A stretch of DNA of 26,915 bases from a virus (taxonomy: Duplodnaviria; Caudoviricetes): IMG/VR virus record IMGVR_UViG_3300044769_000127, positions 1-26,915 of that record; one strand, given 5' to 3'. Both the position numbers and the translations under genes were made by a program. This document shows, piece after piece, positions 3,171 to 26,914 of the stretch (the stretch's first letter is position 1; the number at the start of each line of letters is the position of its first letter). The notes under the pieces were generated by a model, which saw only the letters and a list, made by a program, of their open reading frames with translations, made no database searches and had not been told where the DNA came from.

Positions 3171-4166
3171 CTACTGCACGACTGCGGAGAAGAAGATGCC
3201 GAGGTCCGACGCGACGACCTTCTGTGTGTGTGCCGTCGCCGCCTGGAAGAAGTCGGACGACGCCCCTTCCTCACGCCAGCGCTTCACGGAGACGCCTGCG
3301 GCCTGACCGCCGAGCAGCCCGTTCCATGCGAACGTGTAGCCGGCCGATGGTTCCTCCAACCCGGGGGCGGGGGCGGCGTAGGCGAGCAGCGCCGACTTCG
3401 CCGGCAAGATGAACGCCATCGTCTCGGTGGCGTCCTCCACGGCGCTGTTCCAGATGCCACGCCCGACGACGATCTTCAAACCGAACGCGGCTTCCAGGGT
3501 GGCCAACTCGACGAGCGCCGGATCGGACTTCGATGCGCCACCCGAGATACGGGCGACGACAGCCGGGTTGTCGAGCAACGCCAGTTCGACATCGGACCCG
3601 AGGACGAGGACGTTCGGCATCAGGCCGGTCGCCCCGAGGATGGCCCGCTTCCGCTTCCGCATCTCCACCACCGGATCGGACGTGGAGAGGTTCCAGAAGA
3701 TGGTCTGGTTCGCTGTGGGACCGGACGCCACACCTGTCACGTCGGTACCCCAGATCGAGGTGGCCATGAACGCCGCGGCGAACTTCCGATCGGCGTGGAT
3801 GAGGTGCTGCGACATCAGCATCCGCACCTTGGCCCGCTCCATGTTGATCGGGTTCGTCTGGTTGGCCCGCTCCCGATCGTCGATGGTGGCCGACAGGCCT
3901 TCCTCTTCGATCGTGTAGCTCAGCCAGTCAGGCTTGACGCCTTGCATCGGGGCCCGGCCACCCATGGGGCGCACCTTGACGTCGTCCCGGTAGAAGTTGC
4001 CACGGGGCCACCGCGGGTACACGTCGGAGGCGTTCGCCACAGGCACGGGCGGGAACACCCGCTGCGCCACGAAGTTGTCCGTGGTCTGCATGTAGCTGAT
4101 GCCGAACGTGGTGAGCGGGGCGTCGTAGTGCCCGACGTTCTGCGAGGTGATCGGTGCGGGAGGCAT
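3171..4166 (-). CDS. Major capsid protein, 331 aa
   Basis: Size and position after scaffold/decoration genes; 'DAPLTTFGISY...FVAQRVFPPVPV', 'GLMPNVLVLG', 'EPSAGYTF', 'KVVASDLGIFF' match a widespread HK97-fold capsid family; AAAGGAA RBS. Confidence 0.88.
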   Translation of the reverse strand: MPPAPITSQNVGHYDAPLTTFGISYMQTTDNFVAQRVFPPVPVANASDVYPRWPRGNFYRDDVKVRPMGGRAPMQGVKPDWLSYTIEEEGLSATIDDRERANQTNPINMERAKVRMLMSQHLIHADRKFAAAFMATSIWGTDVTGVASGPTANQTIFWNLSTSDPVVEMRKRKRAILGATGLMPNVLVLGSDVELALLDNPAVVARISGGASKSDPALVELATLEAAFGLKIVVGRGIWNSAVEDATETMAFILPAKSALLAYAAPAPGLEEPSAGYTFAWNGLLGGQAAGVSVKRWREEGASSDFFQAATAHTQKVVASDLGIFFSAVVQ

Positions 4167-6143: not shown

Positions 6144-7505
6144 TCAGTCTCCTTCGGGTGGTTCCTGGTCGGCGCGCCACGCTGCGCCGCCCATGCTGAT
6201 GCCGTTGATTTCGTTGGCGAGGATCGCGGCGTAAGCCCACGGCTCCCACACGATCCCTTGATAGATGGTGCCGGCCGGCAACGTGACCTGCTCGCTGCCG
6301 GTGCCATCCCCGAGGCTCATGGTCGCTTCCAACTCGAACGGCCACGCCACGATTTCGACGCACTCACCGGCGATGGTGCCCGGTATGTGTTGGAGGCTGA
6401 TGGTGCGCTCGCCGCAACGCACATACTCCCAAACCATGGCCTGTAGATCGTCGGCGGTGGCCCACTCGCCGTGGGTGTCGAGCGCATCGGGGACGTACAG
6501 CGGCGCGAACGTGTACCGCTTCGCGTCGGCCTTCGTCATCATCTCCATCGAGTCGGGCCCGTAGTCGATGTGGAGGCGGGGCCCATCGAACGGCATACGC
6601 CACACGTCGGCACCGGCGACCAGCATCAGCGAGTCGAACATGACGCCCACGACGGGCGGCTGCGGCAGCTGGCGCAGCTGGTCCACCGGCCCGTAGGCGA
6701 GCGTGACGTGCGCCGTGAAGTCGTGCCCGTCGAGCGGCCCGACATCGTTGGCGCGCAACATCTCAGCGAGCCGTGTCCGCCACTCGGACAGGTACGGGAC
6801 ATCGACCAGGGCGACCGCCGCGCCGGCATCGGGGGTGCCGTCGGTGTCACCGACTGTCAGGTTGAACACAGCGAACCCGCTGATCACGCCTTCCATCGGC
6901 CACTCGTACGGACAGAACGAGCGGAGCACAGCGGCCAGCCGTTCCACCTCATCGGCCGGCCAATACGACACGTCACCCATGTAGGCGAGCGTCACGTGGA
7001 GAGCGGCGGCGGGTTCCACCTCGATGCCATCGGGGGCGGTCGCCGGGTCAACCGCCAGGAGGTCGGCTATCTCGGGGGCGAGCCCCAACGCGACCATCAC
7101 CCCATGCGGGTTCGTGTCGCCGGCTTCCGGGTCGAACGACACGGCCTGTTCTTTGCGGAGCGCTGCGGGTAGCTCCTGCCCCGGGTGGACCTTCTCCCAT
7201 GCGAGCCGGATGCGGGCCCTGGCCTCGCGGGCGAACCGGACCGGAATCGTCGGGTCGGCGTCAGCCGAGAGGCGGCCCAACGCGTAGGCGACCAGCCCGG
7301 CATCGGGCTTCGATTCTCCGTCGTAGTAGAGCGGCAGCCGCCACGTGGAGGCGTCGTCGGCGTCGGGGACAAGCGCCCAGCAGTCAGCACGGGCAGGGTG
7401 CGCTTTGCCGTCGCGTTTCGTGACGGGCGGGACGTGGAGCGGCACCCCCTGCACGGCTGCACGGGCGGTGCCCGGGTCGATGGCGGTGACCGTGGGGCGA
7501 TGCAC
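6144..7505 (-). CDS. Three-domain head protein, ~453 aa: N-terminal helical phage domain + 2H phosphoesterase + XkdF-like (peptidase S78-like) prohead protease
   Basis: Two HxT motifs (LHVTLAY at 6998-6987; AHVTLAY at 6710-6699); C-terminal 'YVPDALDTHGEWAT', 'SLQH', 'LPAGT', 'INGISMGG' typical of XkdF-like proteases; GTG 7505 sits 7 nt after CAGACT. Confidence 0.82.
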   Translation of the reverse strand: MHRPTVTAIDPGTARAAVQGVPLHVPPVTKRDGKAHPARADCWALVPDADDASTWRLPLYYDGESKPDAGLVAYALGRLSADADPTIPVRFAREARARIRLAWEKVHPGQELPAALRKEQAVSFDPEAGDTNPHGVMVALGLAPEIADLLAVDPATAPDGIEVEPAAALHVTLAYMGDVSYWPADEVERLAAVLRSFCPYEWPMEGVISGFAVFNLTVGDTDGTPDAGAAVALVDVPYLSEWRTRLAEMLRANDVGPLDGHDFTAHVTLAYGPVDQLRQLPQPPVVGVMFDSLMLVAGADVWRMPFDGPRLHIDYGPDSMEMMTKADAKRYTFAPLYVPDALDTHGEWATADDLQAMVWEYVRCGERTISLQHIPGTIAGECVEIVAWPFELEATMSLGDGTGSEQVTLPAGTIYQGIVWEPWAYAAILANEINGISMGGAAWRADQEPPEGD

Positions 7506-7564
7506 GCCCCCTAGTCTGCACCAGCCGGCGCAGCCGCGGGCACCTTGCCCGGTTCGCGGGACTG

Positions 7565-7960
7565 CTAGCGGCGGCCGTTGGCTTGGCGTACGGCCTGCGC
7601 GGCGACCTGCTCGCCGGTGGCGACGATGCGGACCGGGATGCGGGCCACGTGGGCACCGCGGCGCAGCACCACCGTGACACACCCGGACCCGTCGGGGTCG
7701 GTGCCCACGTGGTACACGTCGTCGGCGGTCCACCGCCAGGCGGCGGCGGCAGCCCGGATGGTGGCGACTGTGGCCGGCCCGGCGGCCCGCATGGTTGCAC
7801 CCTCAGCGGCGAGCGCCTGGACGGCGGCCCGGTGGGTGTCCTCGGCTTGGATGGCGGCCAGCTGGTGCTCGACGCAGGCTTCCGTCACGTCCCAGGTGTT
7901 GACCAGGTCGCGGCGTTCCTCGATGCACCCGCAGGGGGCGATCCGGCGGCCGGCGTTCAT
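7565..7960 (-). CDS. Hypothetical protein, 131 aa (MNAGRRIAPCGC...)
   Basis: ATGA overlap with 7957-8217; fills the cassette between promoter 8225-8253 and the protease gene. Confidence 0.65.
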   Translation of the reverse strand: MNAGRRIAPCGCIEERRDLVNTWDVTEACVEHQLAAIQAEDTHRAAVQALAAEGATMRAAGPATVATIRAAAAAWRWTADDVYHVGTDPDGSGCVTVVLRRGAHVARIPVRIVATGEQVAAQAVRQANGRR

Positions 7961-8632: not shown

Positions 8633-9442
8633 CTAGTCCGTGAGGATCGCGGTACAGCGGCATCGCACATGGTCGGGTGGCATCAGCCGCCCATTGGAGA
8701 ACGGCTCATCCAATCCGACGGGGGCCTCGCCGGCCAGTTGCACGCAGCGGGGGCAGGCGGTGGGTGTCTCGGCGTGCCACACCTTGCGCTGGTCTGTAGG
8801 GAACGCGCCGGTCTGCTGGCCTTCTTTCCAGGTGCGCCACCGGCCCATGTTGCGGGCATCTTGCACCTCCCACCGTGCGATGTTCATGGCCCGGGCCCGC
8901 AGGAGCTTCTGGCCGTAGCGGCTACTCATCCGTTCGACCTGTGCGGCGGGGCGGGCCTGGTCGATGAGGCGGCGACGGTAGTTGACGACGGCGGTAGCCC
9001 ACCGTGGGTGTAGCCCGATGACGGCACGCACCTCGCCAGCCACGGCATCCATCGAGCGACCCTTGCCGATCCCATCGACGATGATGCCGCTGACCGCGGC
9101 GCGGGTCGAGTCGGTGACGGAAGTGATGAGCGCCGCCGAATGCTCATAGCCCCATGCCCGGGCGAGGGCAGTCGCGTCGAACGTGACCGTGACGCCTGCG
9201 GAGGTGGCCTCGATGGTCGACAGGTACTCGTCGATCAGTAGCGGCTCCCACCGGGCGAGCACCTGCCGCCACGCATCCCACGCGACGGCCTCCAACGCGA
9301 CGGTAGCTGAGCGTCCCGCTACAGCCTCCGTAAAGGGCCCCACCGCGAGGACAGCGGCGGCGGCGGCGGCGGTGAGCACGGCGGCCACGCGGCGCTCAGC
9401 GGCCGTTGGGGCATCGGGTAGCGGTTCGTCCCGGTCGGCCAT
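8633..9442 (-). CDS. Phage head morphogenesis protein (MuF / SPP1 gp7-like), ~269 aa
   Basis: 'RARAMNIARWE', 'RKVW', 'CPRC', 'PPDHVRCRC' are MuF-family hallmarks; ATG 9442 is 7 nt after TACCAT. Confidence 0.85.
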   Translation of the reverse strand: MADRDEPLPDAPTAAERRVAAVLTAAAAAAVLAVGPFTEAVAGRSATVALEAVAWDAWRQVLARWEPLLIDEYLSTIEATSAGVTVTFDATALARAWGYEHSAALITSVTDSTRAAVSGIIVDGIGKGRSMDAVAGEVRAVIGLHPRWATAVVNYRRRLIDQARPAAQVERMSSRYGQKLLRARAMNIARWEVQDARNMGRWRTWKEGQQTGAFPTDQRKVWHAETPTACPRCVQLAGEAPVGLDEPFSNGRLMPPDHVRCRCTAILTD

Positions 9443-9480
9443 CGCCGTGATGGTAGGCGGTGGGACCTGACCGGAGACGC

Positions 9481-9557
9481 GACGCACCCCCGGGGTGCGG
9501 GCCCCCAGGGGTGCGTCCCTTCGTCAACGGCAGGGGGAGAGGACCCTACCGTTGGCG
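9481..9557 (-). terminator. Two tandem GC-rich hairpins downstream of the LPETG gene (putative intrinsic terminator)
   Basis: GACGCACCCC (9481-9490) pairs with GGGGTGCGTC (9508-9517) and extends inward; second imperfect stem 9522-9557 spans the stop codon; no U-tract. Confidence 0.55.
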
Positions 9558-10295
9558 TGCCAATCGCCAGCCCCTGATCGGCTTCCGACCGCGGAGGATC
9601 AGGAGCGCCACTCCGGCGGCGAGCATGAGGACCGCCGCCCCGAGGGCGGGCCCCTCGTCTCGGCCAGTCTCCGGGAGCCGGTCCCCGGGAGGTACGGGCG
9701 GCGGACGGTTCGCCGGGGGCGGCGTCGGCCGCTTCGGGGTGCCGGGCGGCGCTCCTGGCGGGGCGGCCGGGATCGTCGGCGGCACCGCGGGCGGTGCAGC
9801 CGGTGTAGGCGTCGTGGGCGGCGTCACGGGGGTGTCACACCCGGTGCCGTTCTCAATCCAGGGGCCACCTATCAGGCCCCGGGCGTCACCCGGCGCGATG
9901 TAGACGGCCTTCACGTCGGCTTGCCCGTCGCGGCAAGGTGCGGAGTCCTGTAGCCGGATCGACAACCCGCCGGGCGGGATGATGCCGCTCGCTGAGTCCT
10001 GTGCGCCGCCGTCACCCGACTTGCCCTCATGGTGGCGGATGACCGTCGGTGTCGGGATCGGGCGGGGGGCGTCGAGGGTGATCGTCGCCGTGACGACCGC
10101 ACCAGTCGCGACGAGCAGCACCTTGAAGCGGGTACCGTCGATCGTGCGCCAAGGGATGGTGCACGTGTACGGCGTCGGCTGCGGGAGCGCCTTGTTCCCG
10201 CCGCAGTTCTTGGCGTGCGCCACCCCCTGCGCCCCGACGGGAACCCCCAGCAGGATCAGGAGGGCAGCGGGCCACATGGCCAGACGGCGGCTCAT
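9546..10295 (-). CDS. Secreted LPXTG cell-wall-anchored protein, 249 aa
   Basis: Signal peptide ending AHA; beta-rich domain with 4 Cys; Pro-rich linker; LPETG (9677-9663), hydrophobic helix, basic tail RGRKPIR. Confidence 0.82.
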   Translation of the reverse strand: MSRRLAMWPAALLILLGVPVGAQGVAHAKNCGGNKALPQPTPYTCTIPWRTIDGTRFKVLLVATGAVVTATITLDAPRPIPTPTVIRHHEGKSGDGGAQDSASGIIPPGGLSIRLQDSAPCRDGQADVKAVYIAPGDARGLIGGPWIENGTGCDTPVTPPTTPTPAAPPAVPPTIPAAPPGAPPGTPKRPTPPPANRPPPVPPGDRLPETGRDEGPALGAAVLMLAAGVALLILRGRKPIRGWRLARQR

Positions 10296-11968: not shown

Positions 11969-12251
11969 CGTCGTGGCCGTGGTCGCTGGCCTCGCGCCCG
12001 TCGATGACGAGCGGGTAGCGGGTTGACATTGGGGGCATCGGCGGGATGGGGGCCACCTCGTCGTCACGGACCACGATGGCAGCGGTGCCGCCCAACGGGT
12101 GCCGCACCTCGGCGTAGCGCAGCTGCCCGATGCCGACGCCGAGACGGTCGATGCGGGTCCCGGCGGGGAACGTGACCGGGGGGCGTTGGGGGCCATCGAC
12201 GCCTTGCGTGATCGCGACGCGCAGGTAGTGGGTGCCGTAGGGGGCGGTCAT
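11961..12251 (-). CDS. Hypothetical beta-rich (SH3-like?) protein, 96 aa (MTAPYGTHY...)
   Basis: ATG 12251 overlaps TGA of the 31-aa leader ORF. Confidence 0.6.
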   Translation of the reverse strand: MTAPYGTHYLRVAITQGVDGPQRPPVTFPAGTRIDRLGVGIGQLRYAEVRHPLGGTAAIVVRDDEVAPIPPMPPMSTRYPLVIDGREASDHGHDDG

Positions 12252-12343
12252 GGCGTCAAGCTGCGGAGGGCCCGGCGGACGCTCATGGGGAGCGGCCGGG
12301 TGACGGGACGGGCGGCCGGCTTGCCTTTGGCGGTGGTGCTCAT
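12248..12343 (-). CDS. Small basic leader ORF, 31 aa (MSTTAKGKPAARPVTRPLPMSVRRALRSLTP); absent from ORF track
   Basis: ATG exactly 7 nt after TAGTGT -10; starts MSTT like other cassette-first genes; ends in ATGA overlap. Confidence 0.62.
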   Translation of the reverse strand: MSTTAKGKPAARPVTRPLPMSVRRALRSLTP

Positions 12344-12350
12344 GCCACAC

Positions 12351-12379
12351 ACACTAGCACCGCTGGGTTATGTGGGCAA
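12351..12379 (-). promoter_or_regulatory. Conserved leaderless promoter copy 2: TTGCCC-N17-TAGTGT-N7-ATG, overlapping the portal stop codon
   Basis: 17-bp identity (12354-12370) with 8228-8244; portal TAA (12370-12368) lies in the spacer. Confidence 0.8.
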
Positions 12380-13810
12380 CCCTTCGTCCGTGTCGTCGTC
12401 CTGCTGGCCGCCGCCGGGGCCGCCAGCTGCACCCGACGCGCCAGACGATCCGCCCTCATCGACGGCGGCAGCATCGGGGGCGGGCAGGTCGGCGCGGCGC
12501 ATCAGTTCGGCGGTCAGCCGCTCATCCGGGAACAGGATCGCGCCGGCCCCCGACACATCGGTCAGGAACTTGCCCAACGTCTCCAAGTCGATGGCCTTCA
12601 CTTCGCCGTGCGTCAAGGTGGGGCACAGGGCCCGTTCCGTGATGCCGTTCAGGCGGCACAGGGTGGGGATGGCCCGGTCGTTGAACTGCGCCGCGATCGA
12701 ATCGACCCATGCCTCTAGCCCTGCGGTGAACAGGTCGACCTTTGTGCCGGCAAGGTTGACGCCGATGCCGCCGCCGACGCCCTCGTGTCCGAGGATGATG
12801 AAATCCGCGAGGGTGGTCATGGCGATGCGCTGGTCGTAGCGGCTGATGATCTTGTCGGTGTCGAACTGACGGGTGCCGCCCGATGTCAGGAGAGCGAACC
12901 CGTAGCGGTTGTTTCCGTTCGCGTCGAACGATGAGGGCCACAGCAGCCCGTCGGTTTCGTTGCGGCGCACCAGCCGCACCGTGCGTCTGATGTTCGCGAT
13001 GGTTACCCGGTCGGCGTCGGTTGCGCCGGTGCCCAGCATCGACTCGGGGACGGTCGCCATCGGGAGCCCGGCAAGGTCACGCTCCACCCCGATGGCTTCG
13101 TATTCCTCGATGCGCCGCTTGAAGAACCACGGCCGATACGCGGAGCGGAGAAGCGAGCGGCCCTCCGGGTTCCCGCGGCGGGCCGTCGTCCGGAAATGCA
13201 ACGACTTGGCGAGCGGGATATCGGCCATCCCGCCGGTTTCCTCAAGGTACTGGCGCATCCCCAGGAGGGTCCGGTTGTCGGCCGGGTCGTAGATCCATTC
13301 GGACAGCGATGTCTGCGCCCGGCTAGCTATCGACTGCCACCCCCACCACCCGTCATCGTAGATCGAGGTGGCCACCTTCGCCCCGGGGCGTTGCTCGCCG
13401 CGCCGCCGCTTGTATGTCACCTCGGACCACGCCCACCCGTACGGCAACATCTCCAACGCTTCGCTGATCACGTCAGGCCAGGTGCGGTCCATATCGTGGA
13501 GGCAGGAGCCCACCTGGTCACCGATCGCGACGGCCCGTGCTGACGGGTCGTTGTCGGGGCCCTGATCGCGGGCAGGTTCGACCGCCCATTCGATCTGGCG
13601 GATGGAGAGCTCCACCGCCAGGAGCATCGCCCCGATGACCGGATCGTTCTCCGACATCTCCCGGATGACGCGCCGGCCGGCGTCGCCCTGTAGCTCCGGG
13701 AGGAACTCTTCGACGATGACACCGCCGTACCGGTGGAGCCCTTCGGTGCCGATTGGTTCCGTCGGGTTGAACGCTGCCATCCCGGCGGCAGTCGTCCCGA
13801 TGTCGCTCAC
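12368..13810 (-). CDS. Portal protein (Mu gp29/DUF935-like), 480 aa
   Basis: 'EEFLPELQG', 'MLPYGWAWSEVTYK', 'GNPEGRSLLRSAYRPW', 'EAIGVERDLAGLP', 'IISRYDQRIA'; size and position upstream of MuF. Confidence 0.9.
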   Translation of the reverse strand: MSDIGTTAAGMAAFNPTEPIGTEGLHRYGGVIVEEFLPELQGDAGRRVIREMSENDPVIGAMLLAVELSIRQIEWAVEPARDQGPDNDPSARAVAIGDQVGSCLHDMDRTWPDVISEALEMLPYGWAWSEVTYKRRRGEQRPGAKVATSIYDDGWWGWQSIASRAQTSLSEWIYDPADNRTLLGMRQYLEETGGMADIPLAKSLHFRTTARRGNPEGRSLLRSAYRPWFFKRRIEEYEAIGVERDLAGLPMATVPESMLGTGATDADRVTIANIRRTVRLVRRNETDGLLWPSSFDANGNNRYGFALLTSGGTRQFDTDKIISRYDQRIAMTTLADFIILGHEGVGGGIGVNLAGTKVDLFTAGLEAWVDSIAAQFNDRAIPTLCRLNGITERALCPTLTHGEVKAIDLETLGKFLTDVSGAGAILFPDERLTAELMRRADLPAPDAAAVDEGGSSGASGAAGGPGGGQQDDDTDEGLPT

Positions 13811-13823
13811 GGCGTGGAGTCTG

Positions 13824-14318
13824 TCATGGTGCGCTCGCCGGAGGCGCGCTAGAGCAGATTTCTACGGACTTGGCGCGGGCCTCGACGGCGCGCCGTATGT
13901 CGGCGGCATGGTCGCGGGCCTCCAACGCGAGGGCGGCCAGTGTGGCCGGATTGACCCGGCCCACGTCTGCGATGGCGGCCAAGCCCCGCAGGATCACGTC
14001 CTCGGCTTCGGCGCTTGCCGTGTCCAAGTCTCCGGCGATGATCGACCGGCAGCCAAGCTCGGCGTCGAGTAGCGATACCCGGTCCCGGAGCCGGTCGATG
14101 GTGGCCTGTAGCTCATGGACCTGTTCACCGCGTGCACGTGAGGTTTGTAGCTGCGCGACTTGGGAGAGGATCACGGCGACCGCCCCGCACAACACGGCGA
14201 GCTTCAGTAGGCCCCGCCCGCTGCGCGGCGACCGTGCCGGCTTCGGTTTGCCGTTGCCGTTGGGGGCCAACGCGGCGTCCACCTCGGCTTGTGTCACGCG
14301 CCCCAGGTCGTCTGTCAC
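13824..14318 (-). CDS. Single-pass membrane protein with coiled coil, 164 aa
   Basis: TM 'LLKLAVLCGAVAVIL' then coiled coil with two Cys; GTGA overlap and GGGAGGGAG RBS. Confidence 0.72.
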   Translation of the reverse strand: MTDDLGRVTQAEVDAALAPNGNGKPKPARSPRSGRGLLKLAVLCGAVAVILSQVAQLQTSRARGEQVHELQATIDRLRDRVSLLDAELGCRSIIAGDLDTASAEAEDVILRGLAAIADVGRVNPATLAALALEARDHAADIRRAVEARAKSVEICSSAPPASAP

Positions 14319-14833
14319 CCGTCGTCTCCCTCCCTGACCGCCGGGTGCGGACCGGTCGGGTCACGCTGGATGATGGCGTTCACGTCCCTGCTCAATAGCT
14401 CGACCTTCGTGTTGAGCGTAGCCTTGTGTTCCTCGCATTCGTGGATGCGTGCCGCCAGCCGTTCCGTCTCGCCGCGGGCGGTGTCCAGTTCGGTGCGGAG
14501 CGCCGCGATGCGTTCGGCTTGCTGCCCGTTGGCGGTCCGCAGCAGGTCGTTGAGGCCACGTTGCGCCTCCACGACGGCCTGTAGCTCATCGACGGTCACG
14601 GAGCGTTCCTGTAGGGCAGCGGCCCGGGCAGCCGAGAACGCCGCGGCCCGTTCAGCTGTCCGGGCCCGCAGGTAGCCGGCAACCGCAGCCACCCCAGCGA
14701 CCGCAGCAGCCGCCAACCCGTACCAGCCGCCCACCTGTGGCGGTGTCTCCACCTGCGCCCACACAGCGCCCCCCACCGCCGCCAGCCCGGCAGCCACGAC
14801 ACTCGCGGCGGCTAGCAGCGGGTGCGAATGCAT
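14315..14833 (-). CDS. Membrane protein (2 hydrophobic helices) with cytoplasmic-type coiled coil, ~172 aa (MHSHPLLAAA...)
   Basis: ATG 14833 is 8 nt after TACCAT; the longer 356-aa ORF call overlaps two other genes and is not plausible. Confidence 0.7.
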   Translation of the reverse strand: MHSHPLLAAASVVAAGLAAVGGAVWAQVETPPQVGGWYGLAAAAVAGVAAVAGYLRARTAERAAAFSAARAAALQERSVTVDELQAVVEAQRGLNDLLRTANGQQAERIAALRTELDTARGETERLAARIHECEEHKATLNTKVELLSRDVNAIIQRDPTGPHPAVREGDDG

Positions 14834-14865
14834 GAGCCCGGATGGTAGGTGCCGGGCCCGGCCGG

Positions 14866-15123
14866 TCACTCGCCGTGGCGGCGTTTCCGGTACCGCTGTG
14901 ACCACCCACCGTAGACGGCGGCCACGAACGCGCCCGTCAGTGTGGCGAGCGCGACGGACGCCGCGCCGTGCCAGCCGCCACCCGCGAACCCGGCCACCGC
15001 CGCCGCCGGTGCGGTGGCGAGGATCAGGACGGCCGAGACGTGGGCACCGGCTGACGGCGGCGCGATGTCGCCCCGCTGCCGGTCGAGCCCACGGGCCTCG
15101 TCCCACTCGTCGCCGCGGGTCAC
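14866..15123 (-). CDS. Small two-TM membrane protein, 85 aa
   Basis: GTGA-coupled to translocase stop; two hydrophobic helices and basic tail. Confidence 0.65.
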   Translation of the reverse strand: MTRGDEWDEARGLDRQRGDIAPPSAGAHVSAVLILATAPAAAVAGFAGGGWHGAASVALATLTGAFVAAVYGGWSQRYRKRRHGE

Positions 15124-16985
15124 GCTGCCGCCCCCTCACGGACAGCGACAGCCCACAGGGTGCCGGCCTTGCGGAGCAGCCCGATCGTCTCCAACCGGGC
15201 CAGGGTCCGTTTCGCTGTCTTGTCGCTGGTGCCGGCCCGGCGGGCCGCCTGCGTCTGGGACAGGGGGCCATCCAGGAGCGCCCGGTAGATGGCTTCGGCG
15301 TAGGCCAGGCCGGTCCCTTCCAGCTGGCTGAGGATGGCTGCCGGCAGCAGGTCAGGGGCCCCCGGCGTGTCCGCACGTCCGTCACCCCCTATAGCCGCAC
15401 CGTGTTCGGCGTCCTGTACGTCCGGTCCAGGGGCAGGTCCAGGGCCTTCCGGGGTGCCAAGTCCAGGGCCGGGTCCAGGGGCGGGCATGGCGTACGGGAC
15501 AAGCTCCGTGGAGGTGGCGTCGATGGCGTCGGCGTGGGCCAACATCGAGTGCGGCGCAACATGGCGGCCTTCGGGGAGGGCGAGCGCGAACCGGTCAAAC
15601 TCGATGTCCTCCACCCACCAGGCCCGGGCCCGGGTCGGCACCTTGTCACCGGCCCGGCGGACGTAGCAGTGGCCGCCCTTCGCCAGATGTGAGCAGTCGT
15701 AGCCTTTGGCTGCCATCCCCTGCCCGAGCAGCAGATCGGATGCCTGATCCGAGTCGGTGGCGAGGGCGATCTTCGTGCCTAGGTTGCGGCGGGTGTTCAC
15801 ATCGAAGATGGAGTGCTGCGGCGACTGTGTGCCGACGATGAGCGTGATCCCCGCCCCGGACGATTCGGCGGCGAGGTGCTGTAGCCGCAGCTTCACCCGT
15901 TCGGTGCGGACAGCGTTGGCGGCCTCATCGATGACGACCACGATCTGTGGTCCTTCGCCGTGGGGGGAGCCCTCCGGGGCGGGCCTCCACTGGCCGGTGC
16001 GGTTGCCTTTGCGGCCCGTGTAGCGGGCCTCCATCGTGGCGTACAACCACTCGACGGCAGCCTCAGCCTCGGCTGCGGTCGTGGCGTAGATGAGGCAGGC
16101 GTGTTCCCACCGGGCGAAGTCAGCGCCCCGCTTCGCCGTATCAATAACGACAAGCCAGGCGTCCGGTGCGAAGGCGGCGTAGGCGCAAGCCATGTGCTGC
16201 ACGTGGGTCTTACCGGAGCGGGTCATGCCACCGACCAGCCAATGCTCCGCGATGAACCCGAGGTACAGCTGCCGGCCCGATTCGATCAGCCCGACGGACA
16301 TCGGGCGGACGATCCGGCAGTCAGCGGGTGGGGTGGGCCACGGGGTCGGCGGGGTCGCCAACGGGTCCGAGGTTTGGATATGGACGTGGGCGATCGACGC
16401 GTTCTGTGGGTCGGCTTTGATCGTGACCTTCGTCTTGCCGGTCCCCAGCAGCGACGCCATGGTGCCCTCCCTGTTCGCGAGGGCTTGCGCGTCGCCGGGC
16501 ACCGACACCTTCAAGTCGATGCCGTTGGCTGTGGCCTCCGGGTCGTCGATCAGTTTGGAGTCCTCCGGGAACCCGGTGGCGTGCGCGATCTTCGGCCAAT
16601 GGTTGCGGATCAGGAGGATGGCACGCCGATGCTCGACCTTCTGTTCGAACTCGGCCACCCACCGCCACCGATACCCGAAGCTGCGCCACCCGATGACGAC
16701 CGTGAGGAACAGGAGGCACGCCGCGGCGGGGAACGGCCCGGCGGCCGGCACCGATAGGGCTGCGGTCCCCACCCATGCCAGGGATAGCCCCACCGCCGAC
16801 AGGTACGGCCGGAACCGGTGCGACACGACATCGACGGCGAGCCCGGCGGCCGCGATGCCGACGAGCACGATCATGGTTTGCTGTAGCGGGGAGAGCCGCA
16901 GCCCGGCCGCGCCGGCGGCGGCTACTGCGGCGGCGGCAGCCCACCACGGGAGGGCATCGGGGCGGCGGCGGGGCTTGTCGGCCAT
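15120..16985 (-). CDS. FtsK/SpoIIIE-family DNA translocase, TraB-like, 621 aa
   Basis: N-terminal TM helices; Walker A GGMTRSGKT (16232-16206); Walker B VVVIDE; 'IVGTQSP' sensor; Pro/Gly linker; C-terminal winged HTH 'LSQTQAARRAGTSDKTAKRTLARLETIGLL'. Confidence 0.87.
   Translation of the reverse strand: MADKPRRRPDALPWWAAAAAVAAAGAAGLRLSPLQQTMIVLVGIAAAGLAVDVVSHRFRPYLSAVGLSLAWVGTAALSVPAAGPFPAAACLLFLTVVIGWRSFGYRWRWVAEFEQKVEHRRAILLIRNHWPKIAHATGFPEDSKLIDDPEATANGIDLKVSVPGDAQALANREGTMASLLGTGKTKVTIKADPQNASIAHVHIQTSDPLATPPTPWPTPPADCRIVRPMSVGLIESGRQLYLGFIAEHWLVGGMTRSGKTHVQHMACAYAAFAPDAWLVVIDTAKRGADFARWEHACLIYATTAAEAEAAVEWLYATMEARYTGRKGNRTGQWRPAPEGSPHGEGPQIVVVIDEAANAVRTERVKLRLQHLAAESSGAGITLIVGTQSPQHSIFDVNTRRNLGTKIALATDSDQASDLLLGQGMAAKGYDCSHLAKGGHCYVRRAGDKVPTRARAWWVEDIEFDRFALALPEGRHVAPHSMLAHADAIDATSTELVPYAMPAPGPGPGLGTPEGPGPAPGPDVQDAEHGAAIGGDGRADTPGAPDLLPAAILSQLEGTGLAYAEAIYRALLDGPLSQTQAARRAGTSDKTAKRTLARLETIGLLRKAGTLWAVAVREGAAA
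15425..15480. repeat. Four exact 8-bp direct repeats GTCCAGGG (CCCTGGAC on coding strand) at 15425, 15437, 15461, 15473
   Basis: Read directly; 12/24/12 spacing; inside the translocase linker. Confidence 0.85.
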
Positions 16986-17024
16986 GACGCGAGGGTACGC
17001 GGCGGGTGCGCTACCGGGGCGGGG

Positions 17025-17279
17025 CTACAGGCGGAACGCTCGCCGTGTGGCTGTCGTGACGATCTTCACGCGGATCATGAGGCGGCCGATGCCGATGCCG
17101 AGGATCAGCCCGATTGACAGCCACCCCCACATCGGTTCGGTGCCGGTCGGCTGTGTCTCTAGCCCGGCGGGTTGCGTCCCGGCCACCGGGGGCAGGGTGC
17201 CGGTACCGACGGCGGTGGTCGGCGCGGCGAGCGCAGGGGTGTCGGTGGTTGGCGGATCGGTCGTCCAGGCGTAGGTCAC
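17025..17279 (-). CDS. Small Thr/Pro-rich protein with C-terminal TM, 84 aa (MTYAWTTDPP...)
   Basis: GTGA overlap at 17279-17276; TM 'WGWLSIGLILGIGIG' plus basic tail. Confidence 0.62.
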   Translation of the reverse strand: MTYAWTTDPPTTDTPALAAPTTAVGTGTLPPVAGTQPAGLETQPTGTEPMWGWLSIGLILGIGIGRLMIRVKIVTTATRRAFRL

Positions 17280-17431
17280 AGCGGGCAGGCCCCTACGTTG
17301 CGGCGGTGGTCGCCCGACGTGAACCCGCAGGTGTTGCAGGCGTGGACGTGCCAGCCGACAGCGGTCGGGTGCGGTTCGCAGCGGTCCACGTCGTCGGAGC
17401 CGCAGGCCGGGCAGCGCAGCGCGGCAGGCAT
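17276..17431 (-). CDS. Zinc-ribbon protein, 51 aa (MPAALRCPACGSDDV...ACNTCGF...); absent from ORF track
   Basis: Translated by hand; CPAC...CNTC; TGATG and GTGA overlaps at both ends. Confidence 0.7.
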   Translation of the reverse strand: MPAALRCPACGSDDVDRCEPHPTAVGWHVHACNTCGFTSGDHRRNVGACPL

Positions 17432-17598
17432 CAGGTGCCCCGCGAGTGGTGGACGTGTCCAAGGCTCATGTTGCGGGCCATCCGGTGCTTCTCGGCCGGC
17501 GAGGGCGCATCGCCCGGCGGGTAGCCATGCTCGGACACGTAGGCGTCATATTCGGCCTTCGTCATGGTGCGCTCGTCCTTCGGGGCGGCGGGCATCAT
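17431..17598 (-). CDS. Hypothetical protein, 55 aa (MMPAAPKDERTMTKAEYDAYVSEHG...); absent from ORF track
   Basis: Translated by hand; coupled at both ends. Confidence 0.58.
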   Translation of the reverse strand: MMPAAPKDERTMTKAEYDAYVSEHGYPPGDAPSPAEKHRMARNMSLGHVHHSRGT

Positions 17599-17693
17599 CG
17601 ACCGCCGCGCCGGCGGATGGCCCCGCCGACGATCGGGCCGGCGATACAGGCGGCGGTGAACCAGGCTGCCAGGAGTCCGAGGGCGGCGGTCAT
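17595..17693 (-). CDS. Tiny membrane peptide, 32 aa (MTAALGLLAAWFTAACIAGPIVGGAIRRRGGR)
   Basis: ATGA overlaps at both ends; one TM plus basic tail. Confidence 0.6.
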   Translation of the reverse strand: MTAALGLLAAWFTAACIAGPIVGGAIRRRGGR

Positions 17694-18055
17694 CGTTCCC
17701 AGCCCCGGGCGAGGTCGAGTAGGGCGACGTTCGCTTCGGCTGCCGTGTCGAACGGGCCGGCCGCGAGCATGTGTTCCTCGGGGAGCGGCGCGGAACAGAC
17801 CTTCACGTCGGCCGACGCGTGGGGGGCGTGCGGGTTGGAGAGGACCCATGCGACGACGTAGCCGGCCAGGTGGCGAGCCCCGTTGTCCCGCGGGTCCCGC
17901 GGGTCCCGCCGGGGTGTAGCCCCGTTGGACGGGTGGGACTTGCGCCACTCCCGCATGTAGGCGGCGTGGCGCGCTCGGCGGTCGGCGGCAGAGCCACGCG
18001 ATGTTTCACGTGCAACGTCAGCCACGTCGGCCGGGTGGGGCCGGTGGGCGCTCAT
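17690..18055 (-). CDS. Hypothetical protein, 121 aa
   Basis: Basic helix 'RHAAYMREWRK', RDP repeat, C-terminal 'GPFDTAAEA'; coupled junctions. Confidence 0.65.
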   Translation of the reverse strand: MSAHRPHPADVADVARETSRGSAADRRARHAAYMREWRKSHPSNGATPRRDPRDPRDNGARHLAGYVVAWVLSNPHAPHASADVKVCSAPLPEEHMLAAGPFDTAAEANVALLDLARGWER

Positions 18056-18093
18056 GATGGGGCGAGCCGGGCGAACCCGCGGGTGGTGCTCAT
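18052..18093 (-). CDS. 13-aa mini-ORF (MSTTRGFARLAPS)
   Basis: CAGGAGG RBS; ATGA overlaps at both ends, exactly bridging the two flanking genes. Confidence 0.5.
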   Translation of the reverse strand: MSTTRGFARLAPS

Positions 18094-18308
18094 GCGGTGG
18101 CCTCCTGGCAGGTTGGGCAAGCGGTAGTGGCGAGGCGGGCCTTGGCGGCGGCGATCACGGCGCGATAGGTGCGCTTGTCGCCGTGCCGGCGGGACCACTG
18201 GTGGTCCTCGGTGCGGACCCTGACCTGGTGCCCGCAGGGGCGGGCGAGAACGATGAAGTAGCCGTTATCGGGTACTGCGACGGTGGTGCGGGTGGTGGTG
18301 GCTTCCAT
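18090..18308 (-). CDS. Small zinc-binding protein, 72 aa (MEATTTRTT...PCGH...CPTC)
   Basis: ATG 7 nt after TAGAGT -10. Confidence 0.72.
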   Translation of the reverse strand: MEATTTRTTVAVPDNGYFIVLARPCGHQVRVRTEDHQWSRRHGDKRTYRAVIAAAKARLATTACPTCQEATA

Positions 18309-18315
18309 GCCAGCC

Positions 18316-18345
18316 ACTCTAGCACCGCTGGGGTGGGGGTGGCAA
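18316..18345 (-). promoter_or_regulatory. Conserved leaderless promoter copy 3: TTGCCA-N18-TAGAGT-N7-ATG
   Basis: Contains CCCAGCGGTGCTAGAGT as in copy 1. Confidence 0.8.
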
Positions 18346-18361
18346 GGGGCCGGCGGGGCCA

Positions 18362-18859
18362 TCAGTGCCACGCCCGCTCGCGGCGACCCGGGCGGGGCAC
18401 CACCTCCATGTAGCCGGCCCGGCTATGGGCGAGCCGCCACAGGTACTGAGGCGTCGGGAGTTTCCCGGACTTCTTGGCGTTGTGTGGCCGGCACAACGCC
18501 TGCCCGTTCCCGAGGGTGGTCGGCCCACCGAACGCCCACGGGTACACGTGGTCGGCTTCCAGCTGCACGCCTGGCGCACCGTGGCGGGCCTCGCAACGCT
18601 TCCAGCCGTCCACCCATTCGCACTGGTAGCCGGCCCGGGCAATGATCGCGGCCCGCTCATCCGGCGTGAACCCCCTCCTGCTGTCCCTCGGACGATGAGA
18701 CCGGGCCACGCGCCGGGCCCATCCCACCATCCTCGGGACAGCTAGGAGGACCGCAGCTGCCATCCTCCGTCCCCGTCGCGCACGGGCGATGAGGACGAAG
18801 GCGGCCGCTGCGATCAACTGCCACGGTACCGACAGCCCGTGGTACGTCAACGCGATCAT
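18362..18859 (-). CDS. HNH endonuclease with N-terminal hydrophobic anchor, 165 aa
   Basis: 'RRGFT...IIARAGYQCE', 'EADHVYPWAFGGPTTLGNGQALCRPHNAKK'; TGATG overlap at start. Confidence 0.85.
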   Translation of the reverse strand: MIALTYHGLSVPWQLIAAAAFVLIARARRGRRMAAAVLLAVPRMVGWARRVARSHRPRDSRRGFTPDERAAIIARAGYQCEWVDGWKRCEARHGAPGVQLEADHVYPWAFGGPTTLGNGQALCRPHNAKKSGKLPTPQYLWRLAHSRAGYMEVVPRPGRRERAWH

Positions 18860-23695: not shown

Positions 23696-23725
23696 AGTGT
23701 AGCAGCACGGGCTCGAGGTTGACAA
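23696..23725 (-). promoter_or_regulatory. Leftward leaderless promoter TTGTCA-N18-TACACT-N7-ATG
   Basis: Near-consensus -35/-10 with extended TG. Confidence 0.78.
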
Positions 23726-24887: not shown

Positions 24888-25182
24888 CGGCCGCCGGTAC
24901 GTCGCATCGCAGGTGACGCCCTACGGGCGGCGCTTCTGGTCCACCCCCGACCCTGCCGCCCCCAGGCTCGTCCTGCGGTTCTGTGTGGAGGGTCACCCGG
25001 CTGTGCGCCGGTTCCCGTCGTACACGGCAGCTGAGGCGGCCATGGCGGACGCCTACCGGCAGGCCGGCTACGACGCGATCCCGGATCGGATCGACATTGG
25101 CCGCGAAATCGCGCAGGTGCACTCGCGCACCTCGCGGGCCGCCGAACACGAGGCACGCGTCAAGCGGTCATCCGCAGGGTGA
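24880..25182 (+). CDS. Hypothetical protein, 100 aa (MADGRRYVAS...)
   Basis: GTG overlapping upstream stop; ends overlapping the convergent lysin gene. Confidence 0.6.
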   Translation: MADGRRYVASQVTPYGRRFWSTPDPAAPRLVLRFCVEGHPAVRRFPSYTAAEAAMADAYRQAGYDAIPDRIDIGREIAQVHSRTSRAAEHEARVKRSSAG

Positions 25183-26134
25183 CGCCTGCGGCCAACTTGT
25201 CGGTGGTGGCCTGCGCCGCCTTCGCCGCGGCCGCCGCTGCGCTCGCTGCGTTGGCCGCTGCGGCCGCCGCGTTGGCCGCTGCGCTCGCCGCCGCCGCGGC
25301 GTTCTCGACGGCCGCCCGCCCGTTCGGGATCGACGCCAGCCAGGCGGCCACGTTCGCGGGTGACCCGTCGATGATCTGCGCGCTCGCGCCAAGCCAGAAC
25401 ATGTCGACATCGAGCGCCAGCCCCGATGTCGGGACCTTCGACATCGCGTTAGCGGCCACCCGCCACACATTGCCGGCACCGTCACGCCACAGGGAGTAGT
25501 CGGGCATCGTGGACTCCTTCGGGTACTGGCCCCAATCGGGGTGGTGGACATCGTTCACGTCGTACATCAGGTCCGGCCATGGCGGCGTGTACAGCTTCTC
25601 TGGTAGCTGCCGGAGGCGGGCGTTGGGGCTGAGGCGGGCGTTGTCGTGGTAGCCGGTCGACGCCGACTGCCACCCCCACGGGGAGAGCCCGGCCCGCACC
25701 ATCGCATCGATGATCCACGCCTGCCCGTAGACGGGTTGCGGGCCGCAGCCGCCGCCGTCGATGTAGCCGTGAACGTGTTCGGTGGCGACGGCAAGGTTCG
25801 CGGGTTGGAGGTTGTCGTCGAGCGCCAACGACACAAGGTCGGTGTCGGCGCGGCCCAGGCGGCGGGCCTGAATGCGTGCCTCCCGCCCGAACGCGTAGCC
25901 ATCCGGGTAGCCGCCCCGCCAGCTGTCACGGTGGTACTCCCACACGAGCCCGATCGGGAACCCGGACGCCACATAGAGGGCGTTCTCGGTGGGGCCCAAC
26001 ACCTTCCAGGCTGCCGCCAGCTGCGGGTCAAGCCACGACAGGTACCGCAACCCGCCGACGATCCTGGCGGCTTGCATCTCGCGGACGATTTGGGCGGTGG
26101 GCCGCCAGCCTGACCAGTCGAGCGCGTGGGGCAC
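25160..26134 (-). CDS. DUF1906 (Rv2525c-like) glycoside hydrolase, putative endolysin, 324 aa
   Basis: 'ALDWS..RP', 'GGLRYLS', 'IGLVWE', 'LALDD', 'VYG', 'WGWQS', 'YDVN' fit the DUF1906 TIM barrel; C-terminal small domain and Ala-rich helix. Confidence 0.82.
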   Translation of the reverse strand: MPHALDWSGWRPTAQIVREMQAARIVGGLRYLSWLDPQLAAAWKVLGPTENALYVASGFPIGLVWEYHRDSWRGGYPDGYAFGREARIQARRLGRADTDLVSLALDDNLQPANLAVATEHVHGYIDGGGCGPQPVYGQAWIIDAMVRAGLSPWGWQSASTGYHDNARLSPNARLRQLPEKLYTPPWPDLMYDVNDVHHPDWGQYPKESTMPDYSLWRDGAGNVWRVAANAMSKVPTSGLALDVDMFWLGASAQIIDGSPANVAAWLASIPNGRAAVENAAAAASAAANAAAAAANAASAAAAAAKAAQATTDKLAAGVTLRMTA

Positions 26135-26137
26135 GTG

Positions 26138-26914
26138 CTACCGGAAGTTCGTCGCGATCGCGTCGATCAGACCCCACGTCGCCGGACCACACACGCCATA
26201 CCATGCTTCCTCGGCGGCGGCCCTGTTCGCGTTGTTCGGATCGAAGAAGTTCCGGACGTTGCGTTGCGCCCATATCGACCCACCCTCACCGACGGCGGTC
26301 GCCGGGTTGTCGGCCTCGGTCCCGGTGTAGACCGCATAAGGGACCCTGATCGGCTGCCGACACTTGAAAACGAGCACATGATTGAAGTAGGTGACCTGTG
26401 GCTGCCATGCGACGGTCGCCGCGGGCGCGTACCCGGACAGCCACGACAGCGTCGGCTTGTTCCTGTCGATCGGGAACAGGCCCCACTGATCGGCGGCCGG
26501 GTTGTAGTAGCCGGGGTTCGGCGGTGGTTGTCCGCCTCCGCCGGGGAGCGGGAGGAACGGGAGCACCCACGGAGCCCGCCGGTAGTTGCGGGATGCCGGT
26601 ATCTCCCACGGCTGGATATGCCACGGCTCACTGTTGACGTTCCTAAACGACCGGAGCCCGAACGCTGCCAGGTGGGCTTCCATCCACGGCCAGGAGACAT
26701 CGGGAACCATATCGGCGGCGACTGCACCACCGGAGACGCCATCGGCGGGGAAGCCCTCATGGTTGGAGTTGCCGGGCGACGCGAAGCCGGGGGGAGGCGG
26801 GTTGGGCTGGATGCGCCAACCGGTGCCGACGCCGAGCGGGACGCCGACGGAGCCGGCGTAGATCATGAGCGCCCGGGTGCGCCGCCAGAACTCGAAGTTC
26901 AACTGACGGATGGT
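26138..26914 (-). CDS. M15-family zinc peptidase endolysin with C-terminal peptidoglycan-binding-like domain (5' end probably outside window)
   Basis: 'GWR...ASPGNSNHEG...AADM' and 'EPWH' zinc-ligand motifs; Pro/Gly linker; 'GVCGPATW'; frame stays open to the window edge. Confidence 0.82.
   Translation of the reverse strand, partial: TIRQLNFEFWRRTRALMIYAGSVGVPLGVGTGWRIQPNPPPPGFASPGNSNHEGFPADGVSGGAVAADMVPDVSWPWMEAHLAAFGLRSFRNVNSEPWHIQPWEIPASRNYRRAPWVLPFLPLPGGGGQPPPNPGYYNPAADQWGLFPIDRNKPTLSWLSGYAPAATVAWQPQVTYFNHVLVFKCRQPIRVPYAVYTGTEADNPATAVGEGGSIWAQRNVRNFFDPNNANRAAAEEAWYGVCGPATWGLIDAIATNFR

Follow-up and report, generated by a model that had tools for sequence, protein, structure and literature searches.

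A TraB-like DNA translocase gene with a candidate internal loading site and a candidate internal arginine finger in a virion-encoding phage genome

Why would a phage that encodes its own virion also carry the gene of a plasmid-type DNA pump? The question is raised by the virus record IMGVR_UViG_3300044769_000127 (Duplodnaviria; Caudoviricetes), analysed here as a window that comprises the whole record (26,915 nucleotides; 26.9 kb, 70% guanine plus cytosine (GC), estimated completeness 33%), where a gene for a TraB-like translocase of the FtsK family stands upstream of the head genes. Spread as naked DNA is a possible further route for the virus, one already reported for other actinomycete phages. 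We put it at about an even chance that the protein is a sequence-loaded pump of double-stranded DNA (dsDNA) that moves the unpackaged phage genome between cells, a second route of spread besides virions. New at this locus are a clt candidate that is intragenic, a conserved host-type parS-like site about 1 kb upstream of the gene, and the loss of an arginine finger combined with an arginine in the P-loop.

Is the protein a TraB? The gene is a single open frame, and its product consists of a membrane anchor (residues ~14-106), an alpha domain with a RecA-fold motor (~130-468), a Pro/Gly linker (~478-546) and a winged helix (~563-613). The original prediction of a three-part architecture is therefore borne out; the winged helix has weak matches to Pfam helix-turn-helix models (E 0.0008-0.008) and is well predicted in the structural model, with a predicted local distance difference test (pLDDT) of 81-92 for the block. 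Hydropathy finds two membrane segments within residues 37-99, and four in a 72%-identical sister protein, and the model has four N-terminal helices at low confidence. The Walker A motif reads GMTRSGKT (253-260), the Walker B motif VVVIDE (349-354); there is one motor domain only and no nuclease domain. The model was built from a 12-row alignment (mean pLDDT 73.4; an earlier three-sequence fold, pLDDT 47.7, was poor and set aside). Foldseek places the FtsK motor first (E 2.5e-17), then TcpA and EccC, and the motor matches the FtsK motor in the PDB by sequence as well as by fold. Annotation with Pfam, PHROG and NCBIfam covered 52 selected open reading frames of the window. Within it, the core matches PHROG 1358 (FtsK/SpoIIIE-like, E 9e-24), and the best NCBIfam model is plasmid_TraB (NF041214, E 5e-21, residues 8-462), which is also the best model in 34 of the 41 top homologues scanned (41 of the best 150 representatives listed by a profile search). 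There was no match to FtsK_4TM or FtsK_gamma in Pfam, or to an EccC model at E<=0.1 in the NCBIfam scan. EccC identity is excluded by architecture, since type VII EccC/EssC proteins have several tandem ATPase domains and no winged helix.

Phylogeny, proposed originally as a check, gives the same placement. A tree of 31 motor domains, from which long and redundant rows of a 46-row quick tree were left out and whose ingroup was picked by similarity to the query with no EccC included, has a long branch (support 100/99) between five FtsK-type rows and a side of 25 rows that holds the translocase, the TraB proteins of pSVH1, pCQ3 and pSSPS4.7a, and Gilgamesh gp10. The translocase lies in its own six-row clade (97/91), the branching order within the Tra/TraB radiation being left open by the tree, and its core identity to all named references is 25-29%. 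By sequence comparison the protein thus groups with Tra/TraB and not with chromosomal FtsK, and the TraB-like identity first proposed for it holds.

How would such a pump recognize its DNA? In published accounts a clt site is a group of short direct repeats to which the winged helix of TraB binds, and one such site overlaps its gene by 16 bp (PMC3583192, PMC4447253, PMC3218068). Linker codons of the phage gene hold four direct copies of a short CCTGGAC repeat, CCCTGGAC. A second viral contig, that of a sister phage (G001; 28.5 kb, 27% complete, with the same gene order and ~71-75% DNA identity), also carries CCTGGAC four times, with the copies spread over two reading frames, and a third sequence (L006) has three copies. 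Synonymous shuffles reached four copies in 0/1000 trials for the window and in 3/1000 for G001. Outside the cluster CCTGGAC occurs only three times per strand across the window, which argues for a local site and not for a polarised, KOPS-like signal. A 22-bp block next to the repeats is invariant in all three sequences; in a G001-like variant from three runs, 34 of 36 bases match at the block only, the flanks falling below 80%. Within residues 500-545, an interval picked after the data had been seen, 10 of 23 columns with a conserved residue retain rare A/T-ending codons, vs 6 of 258 elsewhere (p ~1e-8). The same repeat scan recovers the clt repeats just past traB in pSVH1 (four copies) and pSSPS4.7a (six), and a weaker cluster in pCQ3; a general repeat finder run on 13500-18500 gave nothing usable. 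On these patterns we read the element as a candidate loading site (clt) of the pump; a promoter or origin is possible.

Does the motor fire as FtsK does? In FtsK, R620 is the trans arginine finger, held to coordinate firing around the ring, and R632, K643, K657 and R661 are DNA contacts (PMC7321959). The translocase has a serine at the finger position, where the TraB proteins of pSVH1, pCQ3 and pSSPS4.7a have arginine. Among 168 aligned motor domains (three rows with bad envelopes, all with arginine at this position, were dropped), an arginine at the third P-loop position is found in all 12 rows that lack the finger and in none of the 156 that bear it, one of which has lysine. The homologue set was gathered with a profile from three swapped proteins, and several swapped rows are long branches. 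In a tree of 10 of the 12 swapped rows and 20 neighbours, made with the finger and P-loop columns removed, the trait needs nine changes, of which at least six are forced by starred branches; six of six independent pairs agree (sign test, p 0.03), as do five of five in the 168-row tree (p 0.06). Since finger loss is always paired with the P-loop arginine, a dead enzyme is argued against. The third P-loop residue of GBP1 is an internal finger (PMC5084822), and the D6E terminase has a cis-acting arginine at the same place in addition to a trans finger (PMC5727402). By analogy, we infer that Arg256 would take over the role of the neighbour's finger and promote ATP hydrolysis within the subunit that bears it. 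In the literature searched, which had most subscription journals outside it, there is no description of this swap in FtsK or TraB. Another residue, Arg400, is less favoured as a substitute finger: it is present in five of the 12 finger-less rows, of one lineage, and in two of the 156 others. Seven unrelated Tra-like proteins (P0009, P0014, P0026, P0041, P0057, P0123 and P0131) show the same loss of the finger and the same P-loop arginine.

The gene is intact and under purifying selection. Relative to G001, where the protein is 72% identical and syntenic, dN/dS (the ratio of nonsynonymous to synonymous substitution rates; Nei-Gojobori) comes to 0.22 over the whole gene and 0.19 over its motor part, with 0.18 for the portal gene, and a pseudogene is ruled out by this value and the single open frame. 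An assembly chimera is ruled out as well: contigs from four other sediment runs tile 12000-17023, from the portal gene to the translocase start, in near-identical overlapping pieces, none spanning the whole, and gene order agrees in the sister contig. Two short metagenome contigs carry parts of the locus. How widespread is the gene? The expectation that relatives would carry it holds for the sister phage, but the gene is in 0/79 portal-related loci (the best 79 of 258 besides G001; portals 41-49% identical; 41 with >3.7 kb upstream), nor is it in five portal-related records searched whole, two of them complete. A single-protein scan of viral contigs found no relative, and word-index protein searches found two close ones besides the protein itself. 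The translocase is lineage-restricted. None of the findings that would have told against the original prediction was made: the protein groups apart from chromosomal FtsK and differs from EccC in architecture, and the gene is present in the sister phage and is neither decayed nor a product of misassembly.

By analogy with TraB of pSVH1 and TraA of pWTY27, the TraB-like protein would form a membrane-anchored ring or pore and its winged helix would load on the repeats inside its own gene; the pump would then drive the phage genome, as unpackaged dsDNA, into an adjacent cell or compartment. Arg256 would fire ATP hydrolysis in cis, as in GBP1 and the terminases, and the parS-like site suggests an extrachromosomal phase of the phage. 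That the locus is a one-gene conjugation unit in a phage lineage unrelated to the known plasmid-phages, the pump gene being its own loading site and the motor, like at least six independent Tra-like lineages, having moved its catalytic arginine into its own P-loop so that no trans trigger is needed, is a tentative proposal, with the balance leaning somewhat against it.

Could the pump serve inheritance and not spread? In this main rival, which we consider rather unlikely, the same pump and repeats would clear an extrachromosomal or carrier-state genome through the host septum, with host ParB at the phage parS. The parS-like site differs from the published consensus by one mismatch in both phages, is at a homologous place ~1 kb from the gene, and was matched by 0/100 shuffles in either; in Bacillus, one parS is enough to make a plasmid stable (PMC2346475), and the site suggests that the phage has an extrachromosomal phase in which it makes use of host ParB. 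The FtsK fold and the want of recognised Spd or TraA partners are also consistent with segregation. Against these stand the grouping of the protein with Tra/TraB and not FtsK, the clustering of the repeats, which are not polarised along the genome, and the finding of parS-like sites in four of the 79 portal-related loci (two probably one phage) where no translocase was found, so that parS and pump need not be linked. These four sites, perfect or with one mismatch, are at L017:584, L028:2652, L030:2652 and L032:3115. An improbable alternative is a lytic role, in which the protein holds replicating phage DNA at the membrane or moves it there, or disturbs host division, its ATPase low or altered after finger loss. 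The loss of both the finger and R632 would suit this, as would the setting of the gene amid small genes that follow leaderless promoter motifs of host type (TTG.., TAGAGT, 7 nt, ATG), the fact that no lysogeny genes were seen in the two fragments (33% and 27% complete) and the FtsK-type genes of other phages (WXIN, Cr-LKS4); yet the conserved Gln and both Walker motifs are unbroken and evolve under purifying selection, the P-loop arginine is in every finger-less row, and the repeat cluster has been retained along with a TraB-type anchor and winged helix. There is little likelihood that the intragenic element is instead an internal promoter, operator, origin or packaging signal for the downstream membrane and head genes, with a separate and less constrained pump role. 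The invariant block does open with TATAGG, a possible -10, and lies upstream of the portal operon, but no -35/-10 pair was called at the block, its hairpin is not significant (z -1.5 to +0.7), it occurs once in either fragment, whereas the promoter motifs recur, and direct repeats of 7-8 bp are a clt hallmark. Replacement of the terminase by this ATPase as the genome-packaging motor is scarcely credible: the gene is in the usual terminase place before the portal and the window has no terminase, but a membrane anchor is present in the protein and a nuclease domain absent, and Terminase_6N and Terminase_6C are coded by the sister phage, which largely rules out the translocase as the packaging motor.

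Several findings weigh against transfer between cells by a loaded pump. The plasmid_TraB score is 74.8 bits vs a curated cut-off of 800, and the protein is therefore filed as TraB-like and not as a member; conservation is lost at the trans finger and at R632, a DNA contact. Known clt sites mostly adjoin the gene, and here the candidate is 310-360 bp inside it and is covered by three DNA sequences only, two of them close to each other. The repeat scan is not universal, 5 of the 10 Streptomyces reference genes and phage cases being without an obvious cluster: Gilgamesh, pNBC536 and its relatives (four ~130-kb plasmids) have none near the gene end. Comparison with Pfam, PHROG and 23 reference neighbours recognised neither Spd nor TraA nor a GntR-type regulator near the translocase, and profiles of the small membrane proteins run against 23 traB-flanking proteins of reference elements gave a best E of 0.064 (each profile of two sequences, that for the 32-residue protein of one). 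Integrase, serine recombinase, ParA and ParB (PF00589, PF07508, PF02195, PF13614) were found in neither of the two fragments, 33% and 27% complete. The conserved parS-like site fits segregation at least as well. A search of GTDB genomes with a four-sequence alignment gave no relative.

Table 1. Positions in the window of the translocase gene, its candidate sites and neighbouring features (aa, amino acids; nt, nucleotides)
Feature	Position	Strand	Basis or remark
TraB-like FtsK-family DNA translocase, 621 aa	15120..16985	-	Pfam, PHROG, NCBIfam, PDB, fold, tree
Ser376, at FtsK finger R620 position	15858..15860	-	Arg in 156/168 rows
Arg256, third P-loop residue (GMTRSGKT); candidate internal (cis) arginine finger	16218..16220	-	covariation
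Four direct copies of CCCTGGAC in linker codons; candidate clt/TRS-like repeats	15425..15480	-	shuffles, sister comparison
DNA-level conserved block in linker codons	15372..15404	-	CACGGTG, 4 nt, 22 invariant bases from TATAGG; rare codons
Host-type parS-like 16-mer	18002..18017	-	1 mismatch to published consensus (PMC2346475); ~1 kb upstream of translocase
TACCCT, 6 nt before ATG; possible -10 of a putative leaderless transcript	16992..16997	-	same hexamer and spacing in L004, L005
85-aa protein, 2 predicted membrane segments, overlaps translocase stop codon	14866..15123	-	no Spd match
172-aa protein, ATG start, 2 predicted membrane segments, coiled-coil-like tail	14315..14833	-	no Spd match
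164-aa protein with one predicted membrane segment, immediately ahead of portal gene	13824..14318	-	dN/dS 0.37
84-aa protein, GTG start, Thr/Pro-rich N-terminus, C-terminal membrane segment	17025..17279	-	
32-aa protein, single membrane segment	17595..17693	-	
51-aa CxxC...CxxC protein, 98% identical in sister phage	17276..17431	-	
Portal protein	12368..13810	-	Pfam/PHROG; places locus in virion-gene region
Major capsid protein	3171..4166	-	PHROG; 32-36% identity to Roseobacter RDJL-like and Arthrobacter Laroye-like phages

What of the small genes around the translocase (Table 1)? The prediction that five membrane-protein genes flank it stands, and all five are conserved in G001, three with dN/dS of 0.32-0.69; their proposed identity as Spd helpers is not supported, with no Pfam match at E<=0.001 and a best profile E of 0.06 against the 23 references. 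What speaks for the Spd reading is position. Short membrane proteins diverge fast, and the absence of Spd homology is for this reason weak evidence; the five may be ordinary phage membrane proteins. Starts were corrected for 14315-14833 (ATG), 17025-17279 (GTG) and 17595-17693. The 172-residue protein has a weak match to gp24 of Rhodococcus phage ChewyVIII (E 7e-4), and its look-alikes in the Atlas score <0.9. The interval first described also holds two non-membrane genes, 17276-17431 and 17431-17598, the latter coding for 55 amino acids and absent from the sister phage. Window positions 17276-18012 have 88% identity to the sister phage vs ~71% around them, which suggests recent recombination.

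The virion-encoding context was read correctly, with portal, MuF, protease, decoration and major capsid genes downstream of the translocase on the same strand (Pfam, PHROG). Recognised genes are nearly all on the minus strand, in the order two lysin-like genes, many small genes, DUF932, HNH, translocase, portal, an LPXTG-type surface protein, MuF, protease, a scaffold-like protein, decoration and major capsid. The surface protein (9546-10295, minus strand) is secreted and Pro-rich, with an LPETG sortase-type anchor and 63% identity in the sister phage, a host-surface protein coded among head genes between portal and MuF. At 6144-7733 (minus strand) a 2H phosphoesterase (LigT-like) domain is fused to an XkdF-type protease. 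The two lysin-like genes are at 25160-26902 (minus strand), ahead of the head genes; for the upstream one, Pfam, PHROG and phage records gave no match, although its identity in the sister phage is >90%, and a search for lysin relatives gave no phage record, with the sister contig as sole match. The terminase genes of G001 lie upstream of its lysins, in a region missing from the window. The large terminase is there in two genes (L088:6562-9630; ATPase 6562-7617, nuclease 8965-9630) separated by two unrelated open reading frames, ~14 kb from the portal gene. Rep families were covered only by general Pfam and PHROG scans of selected open reading frames, with no dedicated profile search, and none was recognised. 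From the GC content, the LPXTG protein and the look-alike clusters, among which Actinomycetota is the commonest phylum (Atlas), the host is probably an actinobacterium. No RNA set is among the listed datasets that contain the locus.

A promoter-like motif (TTG.., ~18 nt, TAGAGT or TACACT, 7 nt, ATG) recurs before small genes scattered among the virion genes, with three sites in the window (near 23701, 18321 and 8230, minus strand) and three in the sister phage; outside the window, sites are at L088:329 and at L004:2179, 7744 and 14605. Such motifs would give leaderless transcripts.

The implied novelty of a TraB beside virion genes does not survive, as this combination is already known from pCQ3, the Gilgamesh-like phage-plasmids and pZL12. 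In pCQ3, traA-traB is ~10 kb from the capsid gene, Gilgamesh has an FtsK-like gene, and pZL12 is described as a conjugative, extrachromosomal plasmid-phage in PMC3583192 and PMC7157519. Four of five plasmids tested share the Gilgamesh terminase at 77-78%; these ~130-kb Streptomyces records (L002, L090, L091 and L092), filed as non-mobilizable plasmids, also have a Tra-like gene and are unlabelled phage-plasmids. A PF03237 search of Gilgamesh and two plasmids missed the annotated terminase of Gilgamesh and is hence uninformative, and the literature searched had no mention of Gilgamesh together with Streptomyces and phage. Three further viral contigs have distant Tra-like genes. FtsK-type genes of other phages include that of Mycobacterium phage WXIN (L095:3644-4945), a short FtsK-clade protein without membrane segments, coded beside a Ku gene.

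What, then, would the locus mean? The idea of a conjugative phage is known from the Streptomyces plasmid-phages, and the present case adds another, independent phage lineage. The mechanistic point is stronger: natural homologues that repeatedly trade the finger for a P-loop arginine make the trans-firing model testable, and if the proposed swap is true, an FtsK-type ring translocase can work without a trans trigger. If the loading site is intragenic, this would account for the entry of a transfer function into phages as a single gene, and searches confined to intergenic DNA would miss such sites.

How does the phage system compare with known ones? The Tra, TraB and TraA proteins of Streptomyces plasmids and of actinomycete integrative and conjugative elements (pSVH1, pJV1, pIJ101, pWTY27) likewise have a membrane anchor, FtsK motor and C-terminal winged helix, and the clt of Streptomyces plasmids is likewise a cluster of 7-8-bp direct repeats; the phage protein, however, has 25-26% core identity to them, forms its own clade and has its trans arginine finger replaced, and its repeats are inside linker codons, with no Spd, TraA or GntR regulator recognised nearby. 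Chromosomal FtsK/SpoIIIE has the same motor fold, with the best PDB matches by Foldseek, but is across the long supported branch and has the FtsK_4TM and FtsK_gamma matches that the phage protein lacks; R620, R632, K657 and R661 are not conserved in the phage protein, K657 and R661 being absent from pSVH1 TraB too. In pZL12, pCQ3, Gilgamesh and the four ~130-kb plasmids, virion genes and a Tra/TraB-like gene share one genome, as they do here, whereas the head module here is a different one (capsid nearest the RDJL-like and Laroye-like phages), their translocases are of another clade and all have the trans finger, and here the gene is between the terminase and lysin genes and the portal gene, with maintenance genes not seen in the two partial fragments. 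GBP1/atlastin (Arg48) and the large terminases (D6E R44), although of other enzyme families, have an arginine at the third P-loop position, three before the Walker lysine, as here; D6E uses both arginines, whereas across the homologues of the phage protein the two are mutually exclusive.

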